From an uncultured Candidatus Saccharibacteria bacterium (lineage in GTDB: Bacteria > Patescibacteriota > Minisyncoccia > Phycocordibacterales > UBA10002), in the NCBI GenBank assembly GCA_964373775.1, contig CAYJWA010000001.1, positions 1 to 57,608 on the forward strand: DNA of 57,608 bases, in the 5' to 3' direction. The notes beneath the pieces were generated by a model. That model had not been told where the DNA came from. It was given only the letters and a program-made list of their open reading frames with translations, and did not search any database. Made by a program: the position numbers and the translations under genes. Positions 2,506 through 57,608 of this stretch are shown piece after piece (the stretch's first letter is position 1; the number at the start of each line of letters is the position of its first letter).

Positions 2506-3222
2506 ATGAAGAGCATCACAGATTTCAAAATAAAGATTTTTGCGGACGGGGCGGAGAAGACCGCGATGCTTGAACTCGCCCAAAAACCCTTCATCAGGGG
2601 TTTTACCACCAACCCGACGCTCATGCGAAAGGGTGGAGTAAACGATTACGCCGGGTTTGCGAAAGAGATTCTCGCGGCGATTTCGGACAGGCCGATTTCT
2701 TTTGAGGTGTTCTCGGATGAGTTTTCCGAGATGGAGCGGCAAGCAAAGATTATTGCTTCGTGGGGAGAGAATGTGTATGTAAAGATTCCAATTACGAATA
2801 CGAAAGGGGAGTCCTCACTTCCGCTCGTTAGCCGCTTGGTGGCGAAGGGTATTAAAGTAAATGTAACCGCGATTCTCGCGCTGTCGCAGGTGAAGGAGAC
2901 GGCAGAGGCGCTTTCGCCGAGGGTCGCGTCAGTCGTCTCGGTCTTTGCCGGACGAATTGCAGACACCGGACGCGACCCCGTTCCGATAATGAAGGAGGCG
3001 AAGAAGCTTCTTGCGAAAAATAAAAAAGCCGAGCTTCTATGGGCAAGTACGCGGGAGGTCCTCAATGTCGCGCAGGCAGAAGAAGCGGGATGCGATATCA
3101 TTACCGTGCCGAGCGATATCCTGAAAAAACTGGATAAATGGGGTTATGATTTGGAGAAACTCTCTCTTGATACGGTCAAGATGTTTTATAAAGACGGGCA
3201 AGTGGCGGGATATAAAATCTAA
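2506..3222 (+). CDS. transaldolase / fructose-6-phosphate aldolase family (short TalC/Fsa type)
   Basis: KIFADGAE, GFTTNPTLM, VYVKIPIT, KVNVTAILA and SVFAGRIADTG match the short transaldolase family. It could supply sedoheptulose-7-P. Confidence 0.75.
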   Translation: MKSITDFKIKIFADGAEKTAMLELAQKPFIRGFTTNPTLMRKGGVNDYAGFAKEILAAISDRPISFEVFSDEFSEMERQAKIIASWGENVYVKIPITNTKGESSLPLVSRLVAKGIKVNVTAILALSQVKETAEALSPRVASVVSVFAGRIADTGRDPVPIMKEAKKLLAKNKKAELLWASTREVLNVAQAEEAGCDIITVPSDILKKLDKWGYDLEKLSLDTVKMFYKDGQVAGYKI

Positions 3223-3366
3223 ATTAGCAAATTACAAGTCCCAAATCACAAACAAATTCGAAATCTAAATATACAAATTCAAAAAGAAACACTGTCTAGT
3301 TTAAGTTTATAATTTGAGTCATTTGGCATTGTTTGGAATTTGGTGCTTGTGATTTGTGATTTTCAC
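3223..3366. repeat. AT-rich imperfect inverted-repeat intergenic element (copy A); inverted copy of the element at 12643..12817
   Basis: The arms are built from caaat/cacaa/attac words. The 36-mer at 3328..3363 matches the reverse complement of 12648..12683 at 34/36. The 16-mer at 3247..3262 is identical to the reverse complement of 12739..12754. Confidence 0.8.
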
Positions 3367-3370
3367 GCTT

Positions 3371-3982
3371 ATGTATCTACCCTATATAGAACAATATCTC
3401 GCAGAGGCCAAGCAGATTATCGACGCGCTTGATCGCCCATCTATTGAACGGATGATAGAAGTCCTGAAGCAGGTTCGCGACGAACGTGGCAGGCTTTTCA
3501 TATTGGGCGTTGGCGGCGGCGCGGGGCACGCTAGTCACGCGGTGAATGATTTCAGGAAGATTGCGGGCGTAGAGGCATACACGCCTATGGATAACATCTC
3601 GGAATTCTCGGCGCGGGTAAATGACGACGGCTGGGAGAATGTACTAGCCGACTGGCTCAAAGGAAGCTTTCTATCCTCTAAAGACGCCATACTGGTATTT
3701 TCGGTGGGAGGAGGAAATGCTGAAAAGAATATCAGCGTCAATATTGTCGCGGGCGTGAAGTACGCGAAAAAAGTCGGAGCAAAAGTGCTTGGCGTGGTTG
3801 GTCGCGATGGAGGATACACAAAAAGCGTGGCGGACGCGTGCGTTTTGGTGCCGAATGTAAATCCGGAGACCGTCACCCCGCATACCGAGAGTTTTCAGGC
3901 GGTCATTTGGCACCTCGTTGTGAGCCACCCACTGTTCTTGAAGCAGAAAGGAAAGTGGGAATCGGTAGAGAAGACGAAATAA
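3371..3982 (+). CDS. SIS-domain sugar-phosphate isomerase (phosphoheptose isomerase-like)
   Basis: LFILGVGGGAGHASHAVNDFRK and VFSVGGGN are SIS-fold features. The ATG at 3371 is preferred over the GTG at 3356, which lies inside the repeat. Confidence 0.65.
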   Translation: MYLPYIEQYLAEAKQIIDALDRPSIERMIEVLKQVRDERGRLFILGVGGGAGHASHAVNDFRKIAGVEAYTPMDNISEFSARVNDDGWENVLADWLKGSFLSSKDAILVFSVGGGNAEKNISVNIVAGVKYAKKVGAKVLGVVGRDGGYTKSVADACVLVPNVNPETVTPHTESFQAVIWHLVVSHPLFLKQKGKWESVEKTK

Positions 3983-4790: not shown

Positions 4791-4955
4791 AGCACAAAAC
4801 ACAATACTCAAAAATCCAAACAAACATTTCAAAGCACAGTATCCAAAAGACCAAACAGAGAGCGGAGTAGTCGTAGACTGATGAGTTTGTGTTTTGAGAG
4901 TTTGCCGTTTTGTTTGGGTTCTGTGCGGTCTGTGTTTTGGTAAGTTTCCTTTTTT
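4791..4955. repeat. AT-rich imperfect inverted-repeat intergenic element (copy C)
   Basis: The left arm is rich in caaaaca/ccaaaca words. The right arm is rich in the complementary tgttttg/tgtttgg words (gagtttgtgttttgag, gttttgtttgg, ctgtgttttgg). Confidence 0.6.
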
Positions 4956-10742: not shown

Positions 10743-11567
10743 ATGAATCTTCCTTTACTTGGCATGGGGACTTGGGGCATGGGAGGTAAGTTCGAAAAAG
10801 ACCCCTCCAACTTTGACGAATCGGTTGAGGCGCTCCGGTTCGGATTTGCGCTCGGCATTTTTCTGGTGGATGTAGCAGAGCTTCACGGTGGGGGACTTAC
10901 CGAGAAAATAGTCGGCGAGGCCATTAAGGGCTACCCGAGAGAAAAGATTCAAATCATTTCCAAAGTTTCCCGTGACCATTTGAAATATGATGAGGTGCTC
11001 AAAGCCGCCGAGGGAAGCCTAAAACGCCTCAATACGGACTACATTGACCTCTATATGATTCATAAACTTCCTTTGGGGGTATCGGAGCCGGCTGCTCTAA
11101 CATTATCGGCTCTCGAGCGGTTATTTAAGGACGGCCTTGTTCGACATATCGGAGTGAGCAATTTTAGCAAAGTCCAGATCGAAACAGCGCAAGACCACCT
11201 TACCGAAGCGAGAATTGAAGCGAATGAAATAGAATACAATCTTCTGTTTCAAGAGGCGGGAGATGAAGTCGCACCGTTTTGCAAAAAGAACGGTATCAAG
11301 ATAATCGCGCATCGTCCTTTAGCGAAGGGTATGCTTACTTCAGGCAAGTCGAAAATACTGGATAGGTTGTCGCGCAAATACAACAAGACTCCAGCCCAGA
11401 TTGCGCTGAATTTTATTATGTCGCAGGATATGACGGCGATACCAAAAGCAAGCAACAAGGAACATATCAAGGAAAATATCGGTGCGCTCGGCTGGAAACT
11501 CTCTGAAGAGGATATCACACTACTTCAAACGCTCGACGGATCATTACCTTATGAACAAATTAAGTAA
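10743..11567 (+). CDS. aldo/keto reductase
   Basis: [16 protein letters not shown] and HIGVSNF are AKR signatures. The start was set at the ATG at 10743, downstream of the repeat. Confidence 0.7.
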
Positions 11568-12642
11568 AGGCAAAAAACAGAAAAAGGCGATTATAAGCGG
11601 CATTACCGGCCAAGACGGTTCGTACCTTGCCGAGCTTTTACTTCTAAAAGGGTATGAAGTTTACGGACTTCAGCGCCGCGCGTCTCTTCCGAATACCGGA
11701 CGCATTGACCATCTCTACGGCAAAAAGGGTTTCAATATGACCTACGCCGATCTCTCGGATAGTTCAAATCTGCTTCGCGTGATCAAGAAAATCGAGCCGG
11801 ATGAGTTCTACAATCTCGGGGCGCAGAGTCACGTTTCGGTGAGCTTTGATGTGCCTGAATTTACAGTGAACACAAATGCGCTAGGACCTCTTCGTATTCT
11901 TGAGACGATACGAAACCTAGGACTTCCAATAAAGTACTATCAGGCAAGTTCGTCGGAGATGTTCGGAAAGGTGCTCGAGATACCCCAAAGAGTGACGACT
12001 CCGTTCAACCCTCAATCACCCTACGGCCTCTCAAAAGTATTCGCGTATCACATCACCAAGATTTACCGCACCGGCTACGGCATTTTTGCTTCAAACGGCA
12101 TTCTCTTCAATCATGAATCTCCGCGTCGAGGACTTACCTTTGTTACGAGAAAGATTACCGTCGGCCTATCGCGCATTTCACTCGGGCTCCAAAAAACACT
12201 CCGGCTCGGGAACCTCGACGCTAAACGTGATTGGGGATATTCTAAGGATTACGTCGAAGCCATCTGGAAGATTCTGCAACACAAAGAAGCGGATGATTTT
12301 CTCATCGCGACCGGAGAAACCCATTCGGTACGCGAATTTGTCGAGGAGGCGGGGAAGCATCTTAACATGGATATCGTCTGGAAAGGTAAGGGTCTTGACG
12401 AGAAGGGGATTGACCGAAAGACGGGAAGGATCGTCGTGGAGGTTGACCCAATTCACTTCAGGCCCAACGAAGTTGAGTTTCTGCAAGGGGACGCATCGAA
12501 AGCGCAGAACCTCCTCGGCTGGAAGCCCAAAACAACCTTTGCCGCGCTGGCGAAGCTTATGGTGGAGCAGGACATTGTGTACGTGAGGCGTGAGCAGGCA
12601 ATCGGGCATCCGGTCGTGACGCAGAGGAAGTTCCAAGTGTAA
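11551..12642 (+). CDS. gmd: GDP-mannose (or GDP-heptose) 4,6-dehydratase
   Basis: [58 protein letters not shown] and [12 protein letters not shown] are all Gmd hallmarks. Confidence 0.85.
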
Positions 12643-12817
12643 AAAGAAAAATCCCAAATCACAAGCACCAAATTACAAACAATATCCAATTCCGAAATTC
12701 CAATTGCCGAAATTGATTCTGGGTTCTGAATTTGAAAGTTCGAATTTGTTTGTGGTTTGTCTGGCTTTGCCAGATCTCGCAAAGCGAGAGAATTTGTAAT
12801 TTGTGATTTAATTTTCT
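12643..12817. repeat. AT-rich imperfect inverted-repeat intergenic element (copy B), inverted relative to copy A
   Basis: The 36-mer at 12648..12683 and the 16-mer at 12739..12754 match copy A in reverse complement. It contains two GC mini-hairpins: ctggc-ttt-gccag (12761..12773) and tctcgc-aaa-gcgaga (12775..12789). Confidence 0.8.
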
Positions 12818-13207
12818 ATGGACAAGATATTTTTAGGCAAAAAACTTGTTGCGATTCGTGTTAGAAAGTTCCCTAACGGAACGAATCCAGTGTCGTCTCC
12901 TAACGGCGCCCTCCAGCTCCTTACCATGAAACGTCCAAAAGGGCATATCGTCAAAGGACATCTGCATGTTCCTAAAACGCGCGTGACGAGGGTGCTTCAA
13001 GAGTGCCTCATCGTCATTAAAGGAAAAATACGGTACGACCTTTTCGATAAGAAAGGGAAATGCCTTAAGAAAGTGTTGGTAAAGGCGGGGGAGGCAATGC
13101 TTATTTTAGACGCTCCCCACTCCGTTCATTTTCTTGAAGACACAGTTGCCTATGAGCTCAAAAACGGTCCGTTTATAGACGACAAAGAATTTCTTAAAAT
13201 CAGTTAA
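12818..13207 (+). CDS. small cupin-fold protein (WbuC/RmlC-like, function uncertain)
   Basis: 129 aa with a beta-rich pattern (GHLHVP...LIVIKGKIRYDLFD...APHSVHFLEDTVAYELKNGPF). It lies directly downstream of gmd. Confidence 0.4.
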   Translation: MDKIFLGKKLVAIRVRKFPNGTNPVSSPNGALQLLTMKRPKGHIVKGHLHVPKTRVTRVLQECLIVIKGKIRYDLFDKKGKCLKKVLVKAGEAMLILDAPHSVHFLEDTVAYELKNGPFIDDKEFLKIS

Positions 13208-21028: not shown

Positions 21029-21062
21029 TTTCTTTCGAAAAACTCAAGTGGCAAACACCTTT

Positions 21063-22751
21063 ATGTCGTATCATGAACGAATCACGCATGTTATACGGGA
21101 ACACCGCGGAGCGCTTGTGGGAGCTCTCGCCGCGGCTTCTTTGGTTTTTTCCCCACTTGCAGGTTTTCTCTTTTTGTCAGATTCATATCAAGGTATCAAT
21201 GTGGGGAATTACTTTCAGGACGAGTTTCATTATCTTGCCAAGGGAAGGGAGGTGTTGGACGGCAACGGCTTGGGAAACATTATTTTGCATGAGGGGAAGG
21301 ATTGGTATAACCCTGAACAGAAATACGCCGAATATCTTGTCCTGCCGCTTCGTTGGCTGGGATTGTCGCAAAAGGTAGACATATCGGTTGTTTTCACCGT
21401 CTATGGTTTTGTCGGTGTCTTTGTACTTGTGCTCCTTATTTATTCTTTTCTTCTCCAACTCTCTCGAGATAAGAGATTAGCCCTCTTGTCGGCGCTTTTT
21501 ATCGTTCTCGCTTACAATGTTGTCACCAGATATAACTTCATTGATTATTTTAATATCAACGGTAGACCCGCCTACCCGCTCTTCAGCTCGTTGATCTTCT
21601 TTTTTTACTTAAATCTCCTGGTCAAGAGTTTGAAGTCAACAAAGCGTGTCCATGTGCTTGGTGCCGCTGCGGCTTTCGGTCTGTCATTTTACATCTATCT
21701 TTTCTGCTGGAGCTTTATCCTTGTGCTGAATGTCCTCCTCGCTGCTATTTATCTTCTTAAGAGAGAGCAAGAACAGTTTAGAAAAATACTCACGATCTCG
21801 TGTCTCGGACTTCTTGCTGGTTCTTTTGAAGTACTCATTTTATACTTCTACGCTCAAACTGACATGGGACGACAGATTTTAAATTTTACAGGCGGCGCTT
21901 TTTCCCGCGAGTTTACGCTTATCAAGATATCATGGATTGCACTGGCGTTTTTCTTCTTTTATCGCTCTCGTAGGAAAAGCGATGAGAACTTGCCTCTGCT
22001 TCTCGCACTTATTCTTGCCGGCATCGTTTCCATCAATCAGCAGCTCGTCACGGGGAGGGGTTTTCAATCCTTTCATTATTTTTGGAACTTTATCATACCG
22101 ACCGTGAGCGCGGTCGGTCTCTATATGACTTGGTTCGTCATTGAGTCCGCCGGACTCCGGCGCGTTTTCTTTTACGCCTTGCTTGTTTTGATATTTGTGA
22201 ATAGTGCAACCCAATCTTTTCTCGGTACCCTTTCAACGCTTGAGTTAAAGAATTATGCCCAGAACTATCGTCCCGTTATTGACTATTTGAACACAGACAA
22301 AAACCCTTCGGTAATTTTGGCGTCAGACCCATTTTATGAACTGTTGTTCATCGTCTATACCCCGCATGATCTATTTTGGAACGGCATGGCACTCGCTTTT
22401 AACACCCCCGGCAGCGCTCTGCGAGACGCATTTGTAGTGTACCGCTATCTTAATAAAGACTTGCGTACAGAGCCGCTTGATTATGCGGGCAGCAGTGCTA
22501 TGCCTGCCGGTCAATATAAAGAGCTTTATGTTTCCTTTAAGCACTATATGGTTAATTTTTTGGGGAAGGATGACGCCGCTTTTTACACGGCACTCGCTGC
22601 AGCGGAAGACATAACAGATATCCTGAAGAGGCACCAGGTGAAGTATATTGTTTGGGATAAAAACAAAAATCCAGAATGGGACCTCTCCATCCTTCGCGGA
22701 TTACGGGAGGTATTGGTGTACCGCAATATATATGTATACCTCATCTCATAG
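21063..22751 (+). CDS. large polytopic membrane protein, putative GT-C-fold glycosyltransferase
   Basis: More than 10 hydrophobic segments. The first loop NVGNYFQDEFHYLAKGREVLDGNGLGN carries a DE-x-H motif like the PMT DEVHFG motif. It is a close paralog of 28757..30496, and the start was set by homology (MSYHERI vs MSHSERI). Confidence 0.55.
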   Translation: MSYHERITHVIREHRGALVGALAAASLVFSPLAGFLFLSDSYQGINVGNYFQDEFHYLAKGREVLDGNGLGNIILHEGKDWYNPEQKYAEYLVLPLRWLGLSQKVDISVVFTVYGFVGVFVLVLLIYSFLLQLSRDKRLALLSALFIVLAYNVVTRYNFIDYFNINGRPAYPLFSSLIFFFYLNLLVKSLKSTKRVHVLGAAAAFGLSFYIYLFCWSFILVLNVLLAAIYLLKREQEQFRKILTISCLGLLAGSFEVLILYFYAQTDMGRQILNFTGGAFSREFTLIKISWIALAFFFFYRSRRKSDENLPLLLALILAGIVSINQQLVTGRGFQSFHYFWNFIIPTVSAVGLYMTWFVIESAGLRRVFFYALLVLIFVNSATQSFLGTLSTLELKNYAQNYRPVIDYLNTDKNPSVILASDPFYELLFIVYTPHDLFWNGMALAFNTPGSALRDAFVVYRYLNKDLRTEPLDYAGSSAMPAGQYKELYVSFKHYMVNFLGKDDAAFYTALAAAEDITDILKRHQVKYIVWDKNKNPEWDLSILRGLREVLVYRNIYVYLIS

Positions 22752-26026: not shown

Positions 26027-26949
26027 TGAAAACTCTTGCGCTAATCGGTGTCGGCAAATGGGGTAAGAATATAGTTTCAACTTTGGAAACAATTCCCGAC
26101 GCCAATTTAAAATATCTATCCGCTCGCGACCTAGAATCGCTGTCTTCGTATGGAGAGAAACATGAAAAGGTATCTGACTGGCATGTACTTCTAAAAAAGA
26201 AAGATCTTGATGCGGTACTCATCGCTACCCCTCCCTCCCCGCACTGCATGCTCATAGAATCAGCCCTCAAAGCCGGCAAGCATGTTTTTGTGGAGAAACC
26301 GATGGTGCTTTCTTCGGATGAGGCAAAACGAATTCAAAAGCTCGTTGCTTCAACGGGGAACGTTTTCATGGTGGGCTATCAGTACCTCTTTAACGACAAT
26401 ATACGCTACATAAAAAAGGAAATTGAGAAGGGAACACTTGGGAAGATTCTCTCCGTTAAGAGCGAACATATCGTAAGTCCCTCGCGCCCAGATGTGAACA
26501 TCTTCTGGGATGCCGGACCACACCCGCTCTCGGTGTTTCAATATTTATTCAATCCTCAAAATTTGATTTCCGCCGAAGGAAGCATCAAACATGACAGAGC
26601 TTCCATACAACTAAAATTTTCCGCCAGAGGCGGATCCGCCTCTGGCGGAGAAAACGCTTCGTCACTCGAAATTATCGCCGCTTGTTTCGGGCAAACCAAA
26701 GTTAGAAAACTGACCGTTACGGGGGAAAAAGCGACTGCGGTCTTGGACGAAACTTTGGAAAGAAATAAACTCGCTATTCTCAAAGACGGAACCGTCTGTT
26801 ACCCGGAAATTGATTCAAGAGAATCGCTTCGAAACGAACTGGAACATTTCATCCGTTGCATTCAAACCGGCTCGACACCGCTCACTGATATTCATTTCGG
26901 CTGTCGGATAACCGAGTGGCTTGAAACCATTTCAAAGCTACTTACATAG
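26026..26949 (+). CDS. Gfo/Idh/MocA-family oxidoreductase carrying an in-frame palindromic insert
   Basis: MKTLALIGVGKWGKN (Rossmann fold) and HVFVEKPM. The start overlaps the upstream stop (TAATG). Residues SARGGSASGGE are encoded by the palindrome at 26617..26654. Confidence 0.7.
   Translation: MKTLALIGVGKWGKNIVSTLETIPDANLKYLSARDLESLSSYGEKHEKVSDWHVLLKKKDLDAVLIATPPSPHCMLIESALKAGKHVFVEKPMVLSSDEAKRIQKLVASTGNVFMVGYQYLFNDNIRYIKKEIEKGTLGKILSVKSEHIVSPSRPDVNIFWDAGPHPLSVFQYLFNPQNLISAEGSIKHDRASIQLKFSARGGSASGGENASSLEIIAACFGQTKVRKLTVTGEKATAVLDETLERNKLAILKDGTVCYPEIDSRESLRNELEHFIRCIQTGSTPLTDIHFGCRITEWLETISKLLT
26617..26654. repeat. 38-nt GC-rich palindromic element, copy 1 (inside a CDS, in frame)
   Basis: ttttCCGCCAGAGGCGGATCCGCCTCTGGCGGagaaaa. 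The core at 26621..26648 is a perfect 28-nt palindrome. A second copy lies at 28500..28546. Confidence 0.85.
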
Positions 26950-28364: not shown

Positions 28365-28582
28365 TAACTATCCACACCTCTTAATTCTCCCTTTACTAAA
28401 GGGAGTGGCCATAGGCCGAGGGATTTTTCTGATTCATAATAAATACTCTCTATGGGCGAGCTCGCCCCGAGCTTTAGCCGCCCTCGAAGACTCGGGCACC
28501 TCCTTTTCCGCCGAAGGCGGATCCGCCTTTGGCGGAAGAAAAGGAGGAATTAAGCCATTTTTCGGGAGGTGTGGACACTTAC
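28365..28582. mobile_element. MITE-like element (16-bp TIRs, 9-bp TSD) carrying palindrome copy 2
   Basis: TIR taactatccacacctc (28365..28380) matches gaggtgtggacactta (28566..28581) at 14/16. Direct repeats TTCGTGCGG lie at 28356..28364 and 28583..28591. Confidence 0.7.
28500..28546. repeat. GC-rich palindromic element, copy 2 (intergenic, nested in the MITE)
   Basis: ctccttttCCGCCGAAGGCGGATCCGCCTTTGGCGGaagaaaaggag. The core at 28508..28535 differs from copy 1 by paired substitutions. Confidence 0.85.
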
Positions 28583-28756: not shown

Positions 28757-30496
28757 ATGTCACACAGCGAACGTATCGCTTATTTTATTCACGAACATAA
28801 ATCGGCACTTTTAAGCGCGCTTGTTGCCGCGGTGGTGGTCTTTCTGCCCGCGTTCCTCTATCCGTTCATGGCGGATTCCTATAAAGGAATCAATGTCGGC
28901 AATTTTGGCGTTGATGAGTTTCATTATCTTTCCATGGGGAAGGAATTGTTAGAAGGGAATGGTTTGGGAAATTTGTTTTTGCGTGAAGGTAAAGATCAAG
29001 GTAACCCCGAGCAGAAATATACTCCGTATCTTGTGCTTCCCGTCAAATGGTTCGGGTTGGAGGATACCATCACGATTGTTACCTTGACCACTGTCTACGG
29101 AATGATTGGCGTCTTTATATTAGTGCTCCTCATTTATTTGTTCGCGTTGCAACTCTCTCACGATAAGCAACTTTCTCTTATCTCTGCGCTTTTTGTTGTG
29201 CTCGGCTATAATTTTCTGACGAACTATCTTCCATTTTATTTTGTTAACCTTTATTCGCGTCCTCTTATCCCGCTAACGCCTGCGCTCGGAGTATTCCTAT
29301 ATTTGAATTTATTATTGAAGAGCTTACAGAGTCCAAAGCGAAGATATGTATGGTTGGCCGGCATTGCTTTCGGGTTGTCATTTTATATTTATTTTTATGC
29401 GTGGACCTTTATCTCGGTAGTATCGGTTATTCTTTCTGCGTTTTATTTCTTTATTAAAAAAGAAACCGAGCAGTGCAAAAAAATACTTCAGATAACACTT
29501 ATTGGTTTTCTTCTGGGTTCCGTTGAACTCTTCCTTTTGTTTTCATTTTCCGCTACCGATATGGGCAAACAGATTTTGCTGTATGGGGGAGGGACATTAA
29601 CCAATGTTTTTACTATCGTGAAGATTTCATGGTTCGCGCTTATGTTCTCTCTTGTTTATTGGTATTGGCATCGAGACGACCCGAATATACCGATTATGCT
29701 CGCGCTTATTCTTTCCGGCATTGTGGCTATTAACCAGGGGGTTATCACAGGAAGAGAATTTCAACGGTTTCACTATTTCTGGTATTTCATCTTGCCAACG
29801 GTCACCGTTTTTGGGTTGTATATGACATGGAAGATTATCCAATCGGAGAAACTTCGGAAATTGCTGTTCTATTTTATTTTTACAGCGGCGTTTGTTAACG
29901 GCGCCGTTCAATCATACATAGGAACTCTTACCACACTCCCTATGAAAAACCACATGCAGTACTATCAGCCGATTATAGAGTACCTTAATCGAGAAGAAAG
30001 CCCAGCGGTTATTCTAGGGTCCGATCAGTTTAACGAAGGATTGTTTACAACCTACACCAAACACGATTTATTTTGGCAACACCAAGCGTTGGTGTATAAC
30101 ACCTCCATCTTTACGCTTCGCGACGCTCTGTTCGTGTACCTCTATTTGAATAGAGAATCGCGTGATGACATTCTCGCGTTTGTGCGAGATTCAACGACAC
30201 CAAATAATGATTATAAAGATCTGTATACCCAACTCCGAAGATATTACACGGATCCAACTTCCCCTGGAAAAGAGCGACTTTCCGTAAAAGAGTTTGATGA
30301 GAGAATCGTATTTGACTATAATGTGTTCAGACAAAATCCGGACAATGTTAAAGATGTGTTGCGAGCGCACGGGGTAAACTATGTGGTATGGGATAAAAGT
30401 GTAAATCCAGAGTGGGACCTTTCTCCTATATCAGGTCTTACGACACTTGTTTCCAGCAATGATATTTATCTATATTCCATAGAGTATGGAAATTAA
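28757..30496 (+). CDS. large polytopic membrane protein, putative GT-C-fold glycosyltransferase
   Basis: A paralog of 21063..22751 along its whole length (NVGNFGVDEFHYLSMGKELLEGNGLGN ... VVWDKSVNPEWDL). Confidence 0.55.
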   Translation: MSHSERIAYFIHEHKSALLSALVAAVVVFLPAFLYPFMADSYKGINVGNFGVDEFHYLSMGKELLEGNGLGNLFLREGKDQGNPEQKYTPYLVLPVKWFGLEDTITIVTLTTVYGMIGVFILVLLIYLFALQLSHDKQLSLISALFVVLGYNFLTNYLPFYFVNLYSRPLIPLTPALGVFLYLNLLLKSLQSPKRRYVWLAGIAFGLSFYIYFYAWTFISVVSVILSAFYFFIKKETEQCKKILQITLIGFLLGSVELFLLFSFSATDMGKQILLYGGGTLTNVFTIVKISWFALMFSLVYWYWHRDDPNIPIMLALILSGIVAINQGVITGREFQRFHYFWYFILPTVTVFGLYMTWKIIQSEKLRKLLFYFIFTAAFVNGAVQSYIGTLTTLPMKNHMQYYQPIIEYLNREESPAVILGSDQFNEGLFTTYTKHDLFWQHQALVYNTSIFTLRDALFVYLYLNRESRDDILAFVRDSTTPNNDYKDLYTQLRRYYTDPTSPGKERLSVKEFDERIVFDYNVFRQNPDNVKDVLRAHGVNYVVWDKSVNPEWDLSPISGLTTLVSSNDIYLYSIEYGN

Positions 30497-32093: not shown

Positions 32094-32149
32094 TGATATA
32101 TAAAGTATACCGCATAACTTTGCGTTAATACTCTAGTTATTTATACTAT

Positions 32150-32371
32150 TAGGACTTACGCACTTTCTCGTTTTCCGGTGTCATTCTAGTGAAAACTGGA
32201 ATCGAGAGTATGCAGTATAGTCCTGGATCCCCGCCTCCGCGGTTGAGAAGCGAAACCTCCCGCTTCGCAAGACTTTTTGAGATAATTTCCGAATTATCCA
32301 AAAGGTGGACAGTTCCTGTATGGAATGATAGAGGAAGAATACACGAAATATGCTAAAATGCGTAAGTCCTG
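32150..32371. mobile_element. MITE-like element, family with TAGGACTTACGCACTT termini (copy 1)
   Basis: The left end is taggacttacgcactt and the right end is aaatgcgtaagtcctg. It is flanked by 5-bp direct repeats ACTAT at 32145..32149 and 32372..32376. Confidence 0.65.
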
Positions 32372-32419
32372 ACTATAACTGTTACTCGAGGATTTTTAAA
32401 TGTTTTTGATGCCGTCACC

Positions 32420-42097: not shown

Positions 42098-42103
42098 TAG
42101 TTA

Positions 42104-42258
42104 TAGGACTTACGCACTTGGCCCCTCTCCCCCTTTCAAAGGGGGAGATAGAGAGGGGGTCATGTATAACAACGATCTTACTACCACCCCTCATTCCCAT
42201 CCTTGGAAAGGAGGGGAGGGTAGAACCACAGAGTCCACTCGAAAGCGCGTAAGTCCTA
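42104..42258. mobile_element. MITE-like element, TAGGACTTACGCACTT family (copy 2)
   Basis: The left end is taggacttacgcactt and the right end is aagcgcgtaagtccta. It is flanked by 5-bp direct repeats AGTTA at 42099..42103 and 42259..42263. The interior folds into two G/C-rich hairpins. Confidence 0.65.
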
Positions 42259-42276
42259 AGTTAATTAATACTCTCT

Positions 42277-47075: not shown

Positions 47076-47217
47076 CCTAATTATTCTAATTACTCTAAAC
47101 AAACCCCAAACACCAAGTCTGAATTTGGAATTAGGTATTAGACATTCCTTAGGTTAATTAGGTTAATTTCTTCACTATGAGTAATTAGACGAATTAGAAT
47201 AATTCGATTTCATTCTT
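47076..47217. repeat. AT-rich imperfect inverted-repeat intergenic element built from AATTAG/CTAATT words (copy E)
   Basis: cctaattattctaattactc (47076..47095) pairs with gagtaattagacgaattagaataattcg (47179..47206). Confidence 0.6.
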
Positions 47218-57021: not shown

Positions 57022-57423
57022 ATGGTAGAAAAGCGCTTCACACAATGGAAAAAACCAGATATACAGCATGGTAGACCAACCAAGTGGAATTGGTTGGTGT
57101 TGTATCCTAAGGCACTTTCTTTGGGTCTGCATACAGATATCGGCGCATACACGCTCATTATGGCAAAGTATGGTGTGGAGATTGAAGATGAGGTACAGAT
57201 TGGTTCTCATTGCTCCATCTATTCCTATTCCACGATTGATGACAAAGCGGGGAAGGTTGTGCTAAAGAAAAATTGTCGCATCGGCACGCACAGTTCTATC
57301 ATGCCGGGGATTACGGTGGGGGAGAACGCGATTGTCGGCGCGCACAGTTTTGTCACCAAAAATGTGCCGGCGAACACGACGGTCGCCGGCGTGCCGGCAA
57401 AACCCTTAAAGAAATTCACCTAA
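57022..57423 (+). CDS. hexapeptide-repeat (LbH) acetyltransferase
   Basis: VQIGSHCSI, CRIGTHSSIMPGITVGENAIVGAHSFV and VAGVPAKP. Confidence 0.7.
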   Translation: MVEKRFTQWKKPDIQHGRPTKWNWLVLYPKALSLGLHTDIGAYTLIMAKYGVEIEDEVQIGSHCSIYSYSTIDDKAGKVVLKKNCRIGTHSSIMPGITVGENAIVGAHSFVTKNVPANTTVAGVPAKPLKKFT

Positions 57424-57608
57424 TTGTCTAATTTCTAATTCACCTAATAAAAGGTCAAAGGCCTAATTCTAGAATCATTTGGCATTTTGTTTATTTGAGA
57501 TTTTATTAGAAATTAGGTGAATTAGAAATTAGAAATTTCTCATGCGCTATTCCAGAATCATTTGGCATTTTGTTTATTTGAGATTTTATTAGAAATTAGG
57601 TGAATTAG
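57424..57608. repeat. AT-rich inverted-repeat element (copy F) with a 59-nt tandem duplication reaching the window edge
   Basis: The arms at 57428..57452 and 57501..57532 are complementary. The 59-mers at 57467..57525 and 57550..57608 match at 58/59 with an 83-nt period. Confidence 0.75.

Follow-up and report, generated by a model that had tools for sequence, protein, structure and literature searches.

Do the long hairpins that fill some of the gaps between genes in a bacterial polysaccharide cluster serve their host as RNA structures, or are they mobile DNA? We addressed this question for two such elements, A and B, in a stretch of 57,608 nucleotides (nt) from an uncultured Candidatus Saccharibacteria bacterium (contig CAYJWA010000001.1, positions 1 to 57,608; 'the window' denotes this stretch at its full length). 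An earlier note, made from the letters of the sequence, had described A as an inverted copy of B and had offered two alternatives, a structure-based role in RNA (processing, stability or termination) or a mobile palindromic element. Both are still compatible with the data, but the evidence leans towards a mobile element, because the site of A is empty in relatives, the family extends over many phyla, and its copies are unbiased in orientation with equal folding of the sense and antisense strands. We consider it probable that A and B derive from a palindromic, intervening-sequence (IVS) type of cassette and are gene-less ('miniature'), insertion-polymorphic copies of it.

Elements A and B are inverted copies of one hairpin

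The reverse complement of positions 3328-3363 (AAAATCACAAATCACAAGCACCAAATTCCAAACAAT) is identical to positions 12648-12683 (AAAATCCCAAATCACAAGCACCAAATTACAAACAAT) at 34 of 36 sites, and 3247-3262 (CACAAACAAATTCGAA) is the perfect reverse complement of 12739-12754, exactly as the earlier note had reported. A repeat search extended these two matches to 43 nt at 88% identity (3321-3363 with 12648-12690) and to 28 nt at 86% (3242-3269 with 12732-12759), the two blocks being colinear. Local alignment of the reverse complement of A with B scored 76 over ~125 nt, compared with 37 in direct orientation and a maximum of 27 in 300 shuffles. Together with the recurrence of a 22-nt core pattern, which occurs three times in the window versus 0.08 expected, this bears out the proposal that both gaps are filled by one repeat family; A and B are mutually inverted and their flanking genes co-directional, so that the family is indeed present in both orientations.

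The long imperfect hairpins surmised from the letters were recovered by folding against shuffled controls, with z ~ -4.5 for both elements: A folds at -36.4 kcal/mol (z = -4.46) and B at -48.1 kcal/mol (z = -4.57), and in neither case was any of 200 shuffles as stable. Strict Watson-Crick alignment of the arms underestimates the pairing, and minimum-free-energy folds overextend the limits of the hairpins. A is built of heptamer units (Table 1), with a lag-7 self-identity of 0.46 over the whole element. It also matches B directly (26 nt at 85%), each element being nearly palindromic, and the 'inverted' relation therefore rests solely on the imperfections and the central part. Likewise, the reverse complement of a hairpin retains its polarity, so that a C-containing arm lies 5′ and a G-containing arm 3′ on either strand, which is uninformative about orientation relative to the genes. 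We therefore gave up an initial reading of this polarity as evidence that the elements are fixed in orientation to transcription.

The hairpins belong to a family found in many phyla

One genome per GTDB species was scanned with the 22-nt core pattern ACAAGnnCCAAATYnCAAACAA (ACAAGNNCCAAATYNCAAACAA), which is common to three of the four arms of A and B. It matched at least 119 contigs of species-representative metagenome-assembled genomes (MAGs), with ~9 expected by chance (our estimate, assuming uniform base composition). Scan counts are lower bounds (at least 119 stretches), and the family counts derived from them below are among the matches listed.

In these matches the two free core positions are mostly CA. 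The 12 bases 5′ of the core are conserved as well (AAATyCCAAATy), and conservation ends abruptly at AAAT, giving the family a sharp 5′ boundary; 3′ of the core follow ATTCCAA units, which often terminate in AATGACCAAAAC. Delimited by arm profiles, 71 of 123 elements consist of a C-arm followed by a nearby G-arm. The 51 paired elements have a median length of 142 nt and a median fold z of -5.2 (z < -3 in 44), and the gene-less hairpins of the family span 95-230 nt of 7-nt units. RNAalifold on a MAFFT alignment of 30 copies yielded a 13-bp invariant core and almost no covariation, the variable parts being misaligned. The family arm profile from other genomes matches A at 31.5 and 38.4 and B at 50.1, and A is matched over its whole length in MAGs of other phyla (73-77% identity, 139-157 nt).

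By our count of record titles, the matches carry the labels Desulfobacterota and 'Deltaproteobacteria' (~24 loci), Patescibacteria (~22), Planctomycetota (~15), Gammaproteobacteria bins (~12), Aminicenantes/Acidobacteriota (~9), Omnitrophota (~6), Bacteroidota (5), archaeal bins (five) and Chrysiogenales (3). Three of the matches (L030, L034 and L098) sit in coding-like sequence and look like chance. G+C-rich bins hold G+C-shifted versions of the arms (AAGCTCC...), which argues that the elements are resident in those genomes rather than mis-binned. In the archaeal MAG contigs L086, L103, L111 and L114 (Methanosarcinales, Methanophagales and Halobacteria bins), the same arm is preceded by a common sequence, GTATTTGTATAGAGCGAAAATCTCAAATT, and L086 also has PF05635 fragments. 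The copies on these four contigs are mostly located at contig ends and could reflect either a real transfer to archaea or mis-binning.

In Rfam 15, no match in the window reached the gathering threshold, the best sub-threshold values over A and B being E 0.14 and 0.81, and the sole Rfam match on four family loci was a tRNA. A literature search with the A/B sequence returned no paper containing it, only chance matches and the omega heptads of pSM19035. The earlier remark that no family with this sequence had been described thus stands.

Gene-bearing members encode a PF05635 protein between their arms

We clustered all long open reading frames (ORFs) of the 119 loci in search of a recurrent neighbour. 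Besides generic families, a single small protein recurred, and it is located between the arms. By tblastn, Pfam and NCBIfam it belongs to PF05635/TIGR02436, the '23S rRNA intervening-sequence protein', an Avd-like four-helix bundle of ~115 codons with a related PDB entry (2rld). C-arms and G-arms of the same family flank the PF05635 ORF in L055, L119 and L040; the ORFs of L055, L119, L094 and L128 pass both the Pfam and the NCBIfam thresholds, and decayed PF05635 remnants lie between the arms in L048 (56 codons) and L056 (50 codons). The start codon of the gene is the ATG of the arm's AATGAC motif, and the ORF therefore always reads out of a C-arm. Of 51 gene-less 5′ halves, 22 still have this motif, where shuffles predict 6.9.

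The generality of this arrangement was examined independently of the DNA pattern, on 80 PF05635 loci collected from metagenomes by protein similarity alone, of which 72 have enough flanking sequence. At these loci the 96 nt before the ORF and the 105 nt after it had a mean complementarity score of 34.5, versus 16.2 in shuffles (p = 4e-13), the downstream flank contains more G than C in 68 of the 72, and the self-identity of both flanks peaks at lag 7 (0.44) and lag 14 (0.39). Heptamer arms are present at most of these independent loci. They come in 'dialects' (CCAAAT, CTAAAT, CGAAAT), and the two arms of a cassette agree in 43 of 49 cases, which shows that complementarity, or a shared specificity, is kept while the sequence changes.

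A profile made from the PF05635 flanks alone recognises the hairpins of the window: it matches B (E 2.3e-11), both arms of A (E 1.2e-09 and 4.9e-07), the outer 3′ arm of B (E 0.004) and positions 57452-57554 (E 0.03), and nothing else. Neither A nor B contains a PF05635 ORF, and tblastn of a PF05635 protein against the window gave no match.

The site of A is polymorphic among relatives

Relatives whose transaldolase gene is 79-82% identical to that of the window keep the gene order around A. In L124 and L125 the transaldolase and SIS-domain genes are separated by a 7-nt spacer, which represents the empty site. L128 and L129 carry a complete PF05635 cassette at the same place; it folds as a whole with its arms paired, and these arms are of a CTAATTT dialect and nearly identical to those of the window hairpin at 57424-57540. 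At this site L126 has retained a 5′ arm and a 29-codon remnant (MPNGDNAKKYDLEERT...) without a 3′ arm, a state that explains the 'solo arms' at other loci, and L130 harbours a different, 65-nt hairpin of ATCCTTA units. The insert begins at the stop codon in the window, L128 and L126, and A extends from the transaldolase stop codon to a few bases short of the SIS start. The locus of the window is itself present in identical form in four public sequencing runs. The copies are thus insertion-polymorphic DNA that reaches from a stop codon to just short of the next start codon in co-directional clusters, in either orientation.

At 2840-3030 in L124, a further type of intergenic insert, bounded by a perfect 21-bp inverted repeat (GAACTCATTTCAAAACCTATC ... 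GATAGGTTTTGAAATGAGTTC), lies in the gap between the SIS-domain and glycosyltransferase genes, which measures 240 nt, compared with 43 nt in the window.

Across the family, a crude longest-ORF assignment placed 64 elements in tandem, 16 in convergent and 10 in divergent contexts, and many begin 0-20 nt from the upstream stop codon. The sense strand was the more stable one in 15 of 34 tandem contexts, compared with 19 for the antisense strand (p = 0.8), and by our count the arm nearer to the upstream gene was the better conserved of the two in 16 contexts and the farther arm in 18. These numbers give no sign of strand-specific RNA selection and no preferred orientation of gene-less copies. By comparison, PF05635 ORFs point the same way as the genes on either side in 31 of 33 tandem contexts. 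Reliance of the ORF on read-through transcription would produce such a pattern, a constraint that does not apply to gene-less copies.

A model for the origin and fate of the inserts

Going beyond the earlier note, these results support the view of the hairpin as a PF05635 cassette in gene-less form, whose family crosses phyla, and they leave the termination reading unsupported. In our model, a full cassette consists of a C-containing arm of ~7-nt units (AAATYCN ... CAAACAA ... AATGACCAAAAC) with the start codon, a PF05635/TIGR02436 gene of ~115 codons for an Avd homologue, and a G-containing arm complementary to the first; a hairpin of 95-230 nt would remain once the gene body had been lost from between the inner arm ends. 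On a read-through host transcript the arms would pair into a stem of ~30 or more bp with few interruptions of 1-2 nt. RNase III would cleave this stem in the manner known from 23S rRNA IVSs, so that the insert would be removed and the two cistrons separated; the stems of A and B are long enough for this enzyme. Such removal would explain how an insert is tolerated between genes that lie 7 nt apart in relatives. In our view the copies are for the most part selfish or neutral and not a device of the host, and given the likeness of PF05635 to Avd, an RNA-mediated spread is conceivable.

Several observations weigh against deriving A and B from an IVS-type cassette. Beyond an AATGAC-like motif, they hold no remnant of an ORF; their descent from a gene-bearing form is thus deduced from the family and not from A and B themselves, and the history may have been the opposite one, with PF05635 genes settling in pre-existing hairpins. 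RNase III cleavage of the transcribed stem is a step that we infer by analogy alone. The flanks of 35 well-delimited copies (delimited by arm profile) show no consistent target-site duplication, and no transposase-like neighbour recurs in the 119 loci. Five conserved 16S/23S rRNA motifs are absent from all 211 sequences (the window and 210 loci), and no copy lies at the classical IVS location. The pattern scan gave no family match in IMG/VR viral contigs, nor did BLAST of B in phage and plasmid records, where the low-complexity filter may hide weak matches. Moreover, the taxon labels are those of MAG bins, and many copies are found at contig ends, where mis-binning is possible.

Alternative explanations

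Some ERIC and REP copies set mRNA processing sites or stabilise cistrons. The predominance of tandem contexts (64 versus 16 convergent and 10 divergent), the strong folds and the span from stop to start codon would suit a similar, host-selected punctuation of mRNA, in which the hairpins set processing sites or stabilise the flanking cistrons of long polysaccharide operons. We nevertheless regard this as unlikely: the same pair of genes lies 7 nt apart without the element in close relatives, the site of A has turned over through four different states across relatives, the proportions of contexts resemble the typical genome background (our estimate), and the sense strand has no folding advantage.

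The lag-7 periodicity (0.44-0.47) is reminiscent of a DNA-level array of 7-bp protein-binding sites, such as the WATCACW heptads that omega/ParB of pSM19035 binds in direct and inverted arrays (PMC9499535), and the PF05635 protein itself is a possible binder. A contains AATCACA AATCACA, an exact omega heptad (PMC9499535), and a dialect common to both arms of a cassette is what would be expected if one protein bound both. However, this match amounts to 7 nt of low complexity, the register of the heptads is not constant along an arm, and neither a ribbon-helix-helix protein nor any other candidate recurs beside the elements. Pairing accounts just as well for the complementarity of the arms, the start-codon region included. 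A binding array appears quite improbable.

Small size, lack of coding capacity, multiple copies, terminal inverted repeats with sharp ends, and empty sites in relatives are features that A and B share with classical miniature inverted-repeat transposable elements, derivatives of DDE transposons that depend on a transposase supplied in trans from another place in the genome. Yet the 35 delimited copies have no consistent target-site duplication, the sole gene between the arms is PF05635, which is no known transposase, and no transposase family recurs in the 119 loci, whole genomes not having been searched. An element of this type would not usually have near-identical arms in more than 12 phyla, and we judge this origin very improbable.

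Termination, one of the RNA roles suggested in the earlier note, is scarcely credible: the ends AAAT...ATTT and the symmetric hairpin recall a bidirectional intrinsic terminator (A-tract, stem, T-tract), but our scan detected no promoter-like or terminator-like site in A (3221-3366) or B (12643-12817), the long stems are rich in A+U and lack a G+C-rich base beside a T run, the elements lie within a pathway cluster whose genes abut in relatives, and the co-orientation of PF05635 ORFs with their neighbours implies read-through transcription.

Relation to known repeats and intervening sequences

The IVSs of rRNA have been known for 35 years. To our knowledge, how they arose, how they spread and what the S23p/PF05635 ORF does have yet to be explained, and we know of only one member of the very large PF05635 family that has been studied, Avd, which helps a reverse transcriptase. 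The IVS of Coxiella is a selfish element of 428 nt that RNase III excises; it has a 28-bp inverted-repeat stem, and its loop holds a decaying S23p ORF directly preceded by tandem heptamers. Similar ORF-bearing IVSs occur in the 23S rRNA of Leptospira and Brucella (PMC4990558). The family described here shares with them the terminal inverted repeats with a stable stem, the PF05635/S23p ORF in the loop of gene-bearing members, the heptamers at the ORF, and ORF decay. In contrast, its elements are inserted between protein-coding genes and not in helix 25 or 45, and A and B are gene-less, with arms of 45-70 nt of heptamer units instead of a 28-bp stem. Short ORF-less 23S rRNA IVSs (83-99 nt in Salmonella, 112 nt in Photorhabdus) are also non-coding hairpin inserts of ~100 nt, tolerated via removal of the stem at the RNA level (PMC2672173), but they reside in rRNA, are limited to particular species and have no known sequence relation to this family. 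Because the defining rRNA location fails, we file A and B as a variant of the 23S rRNA IVS kind and not as members of it.

ERIC/IRU elements of enterobacteria, Correia elements of Neisseria and REPINs are imperfect palindromes of ~100-150 nt that occur in transcribed intergenic regions, in both orientations and in many copies, some of them processed by RNases. Each of these families is confined to one genus or family, Correia elements having TA duplications and REPINs a GTAG head and a RAYT, whereas the present family spans phyla, has heptamer-built arms and includes a PF05635 gene-bearing form. An assignment to REP/REPIN failed: the arms are not self-palindromic and begin with AAAT, and no Y1-transposase-like cluster recurs in the 119 loci (RAYT was not searched genome-wide). 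The same applies to integron attC sites, which all have one orientation within an array of promoterless cassettes: A and B are mutually inverted, and their co-directional flanking genes belong to a pathway cluster with conserved synteny.

Cyanobacterial STRR heptamers and the TAACTGA intergenic heptamers of Beggiatoaceae, Cyanobacteria and Bacteroidetes also cross phyla, with no known means of transfer, and they likewise consist of intergenic 7-nt units near start codons in hosts with few Shine-Dalgarno sites (PMC4679880). They form direct tandem arrays of a single heptamer, unlike the varied units, two complementary arms and fixed non-repetitive core (ACAAGCACC) found here. Avd, which PF05635 resembles, is a cofactor of the reverse transcriptase in diversity-generating retroelements (PMC10053308); in contrast to these systems, no reverse transcriptase, template or variable repeats were seen beside the cassettes.

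IVS-type elements with conserved heptamer arms are frequent in the gaps between ordinary genes of many uncultured phyla, and, with A and B read as gene-less cassettes, they decay to a recognisable gene-less hairpin. The allelic series at a single intergenic site (empty, full, decayed and gene-less) provides material for asking how such elements insert and how cells cope with them. The family also accounts for a share of the 'filler' in compact Patescibacteria genomes and breaks contigs in metagenome assemblies, and a simple profile suffices for its masking or annotation. A bolder reading, which we hold to be doubtful, would make the heptamer-armed hairpin, with or without an Avd-like gene, a distinct class of transposase-free mobile element that occupies stop-codon-proximal sites in operons, uses host read-through and passes between phyla of bacteria and perhaps of archaea, with the rRNA IVSs as no more than its best-known landing site; movement could then proceed via the excised hairpin RNA with the Avd-like protein as cofactor.

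Gene setting and other features of the window

Nearly all genes of the window are on the plus strand and form a long polysaccharide/heptose-type biosynthesis cluster. The features discussed are collected in Table 1.

Table 1. Coordinates of elements A and B, their flanking genes and further hairpin fillers in the window
Feature	Position	Strand	Remarks
Transaldolase/FSA-family gene, 5′ of A	2506-3222	+	Pfam PF00923, E 4.9e-46; A begins at its stop codon
Element A, gene-less hairpin, CCAAAT dialect	3221-3366		Fills transaldolase-like/SIS (GmhA-like) gap; 3221-3255 pairs with 3329-3362; both arms match core pattern
A, 5′ arm	3221-3269	+	C/A/T-rich heptamer units CAAATTA CAAGTCC CAAATCA CAAACAA ATTCGAA
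A, 3′ arm	3321-3366	+	G/T-rich; reverse complement is best-conserved family core AAAATCACAAATCACAAGCACCAAATTCCAAACAAT, then start-codon relic AAATGAC
SIS-domain (GmhA-like) gene, 3′ of A	3372-3982	+	Start set by homology with L124 and L130
Hairpin filler, 165 nt	4791-4955		CA-rich 5′ arm and GT-rich 3′ arm; glycosyltransferase/epimerase gap; -39.8 kcal/mol; lag-7 identity 0.42
GDP-mannose 4,6-dehydratase gene, 5′ of B	11482-12642	+	Pfam PF16363, E 9.3e-131; true start perhaps 3′ of 11482
Element B, second copy, inverted relative to A	12643-12817		Between GDP-mannose 4,6-dehydratase gene and 129-codon ORF; from fold and alignment to reverse complement of A
B, 5′ arm	12647-12712	+	Family core AAAATCCCAAATCACAAGCACCAAATTACAAACAAT...
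B, 3′ arm, inner part	12724-12759	+	Pairs with 12669-12682
Two adjacent 15-nt stem-loops in B 3′ arm	12760-12789	+	Tiny, G+C-rich (TCTGGCTTTGCCAGA, TCTCGCAAAGCGAGA); part of B's extra length
B, 3′ arm, outer part	12790-12817	+	AATTTGTAATTTGTGATTTAATTTTCT; pairs with 12645-12665
129-codon ORF, 3′ of B	12818-13207	+	No family above threshold
Hairpin filler of 9-nt units, candidate relative only	47076-47217		Units CTAATTACT, TTAGGTTAA, TAATTAGAA; between HisF-like and HisH-like genes
Related gene-less hairpin, CTAATTT dialect	57424-57540		CTAATTT/AATTAGA units; 3′ of last gene; arms nearly identical to PF05635-flanking arms of L128 and L126

The closest named homologues of the transaldolase (69-80% identity) come from Patescibacteria, including Parcubacteria and Taylorbacteria, and the window is therefore probably part of a genome of this group. 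An exact-sequence look-up of the 129-codon ORF next to B gave no record.

Three further gaps between co-directional genes (4791-4955, 47076-47217 and 57424-57608) hold long hairpins of the A/B build. The hairpin at 57424-57540 has a lag-7 identity of 0.47 and a weak match to the PF05635-flank profile (E 0.031). The 3′ part of the 57424-57608 gap is tandemly duplicated with an 83-nt period (57466-57525 and 57549-57608, 98% identity), the second copy reaching the end of the window. The filler at 4791-4955 resembles A and B in build only and has no match to the profiles; it may represent another dialect. The filler at 47076-47217 is 73.5% identical over 102 nt to L063, an unclassified bacterial MAG, which in addition is 95% identical to 57412-57452.

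Besides the two stem-loops inserted in the 3′ arm of B, G+C-rich hairpins nested in the loop are present in the family copies L007, L010, L013 and L026, some with a REP-like GTAGGGG head. A G+C-rich palindrome of the perfect type, TTTTCCGCCAGAGGCGGATCCGCCTCTGGCGGAGAAAA, occurs in the window in two copies that are 87% identical (26617-26654 and 28504-28541), and the loop of the family copy in L026, a Saccharibacteria MAG, contains a sequence resembling it. The intergenic elements of ~170-240 nt at 32138-32380 and 42098-42276 form a second repeat family that is unrelated to the first; its copies have inverted repeats at their ends (AGGACTTACGCAC ... GCGCGTAAGTCCT) and G+C-rich inner stem-loops (GGGGGAG.../CCCCTC...), and its pattern occurs five times versus 1.9 expected. 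A 147-nt direct repeat with 70% identity (21219-21365 and 28913-29059) lies within ORFs of 567 and 579 codons (21048-22751 and 28757-30496), which are probably paralogous genes of the cluster.

Shine-Dalgarno-like sequences are absent at all 42 gene starts inspected (for example 2506, 4026, 12818 and 47218), and translation in the source organism is presumably initiated without them. For several start codons, the distance to the end of a hairpin arm is no more than 5-10 nt.

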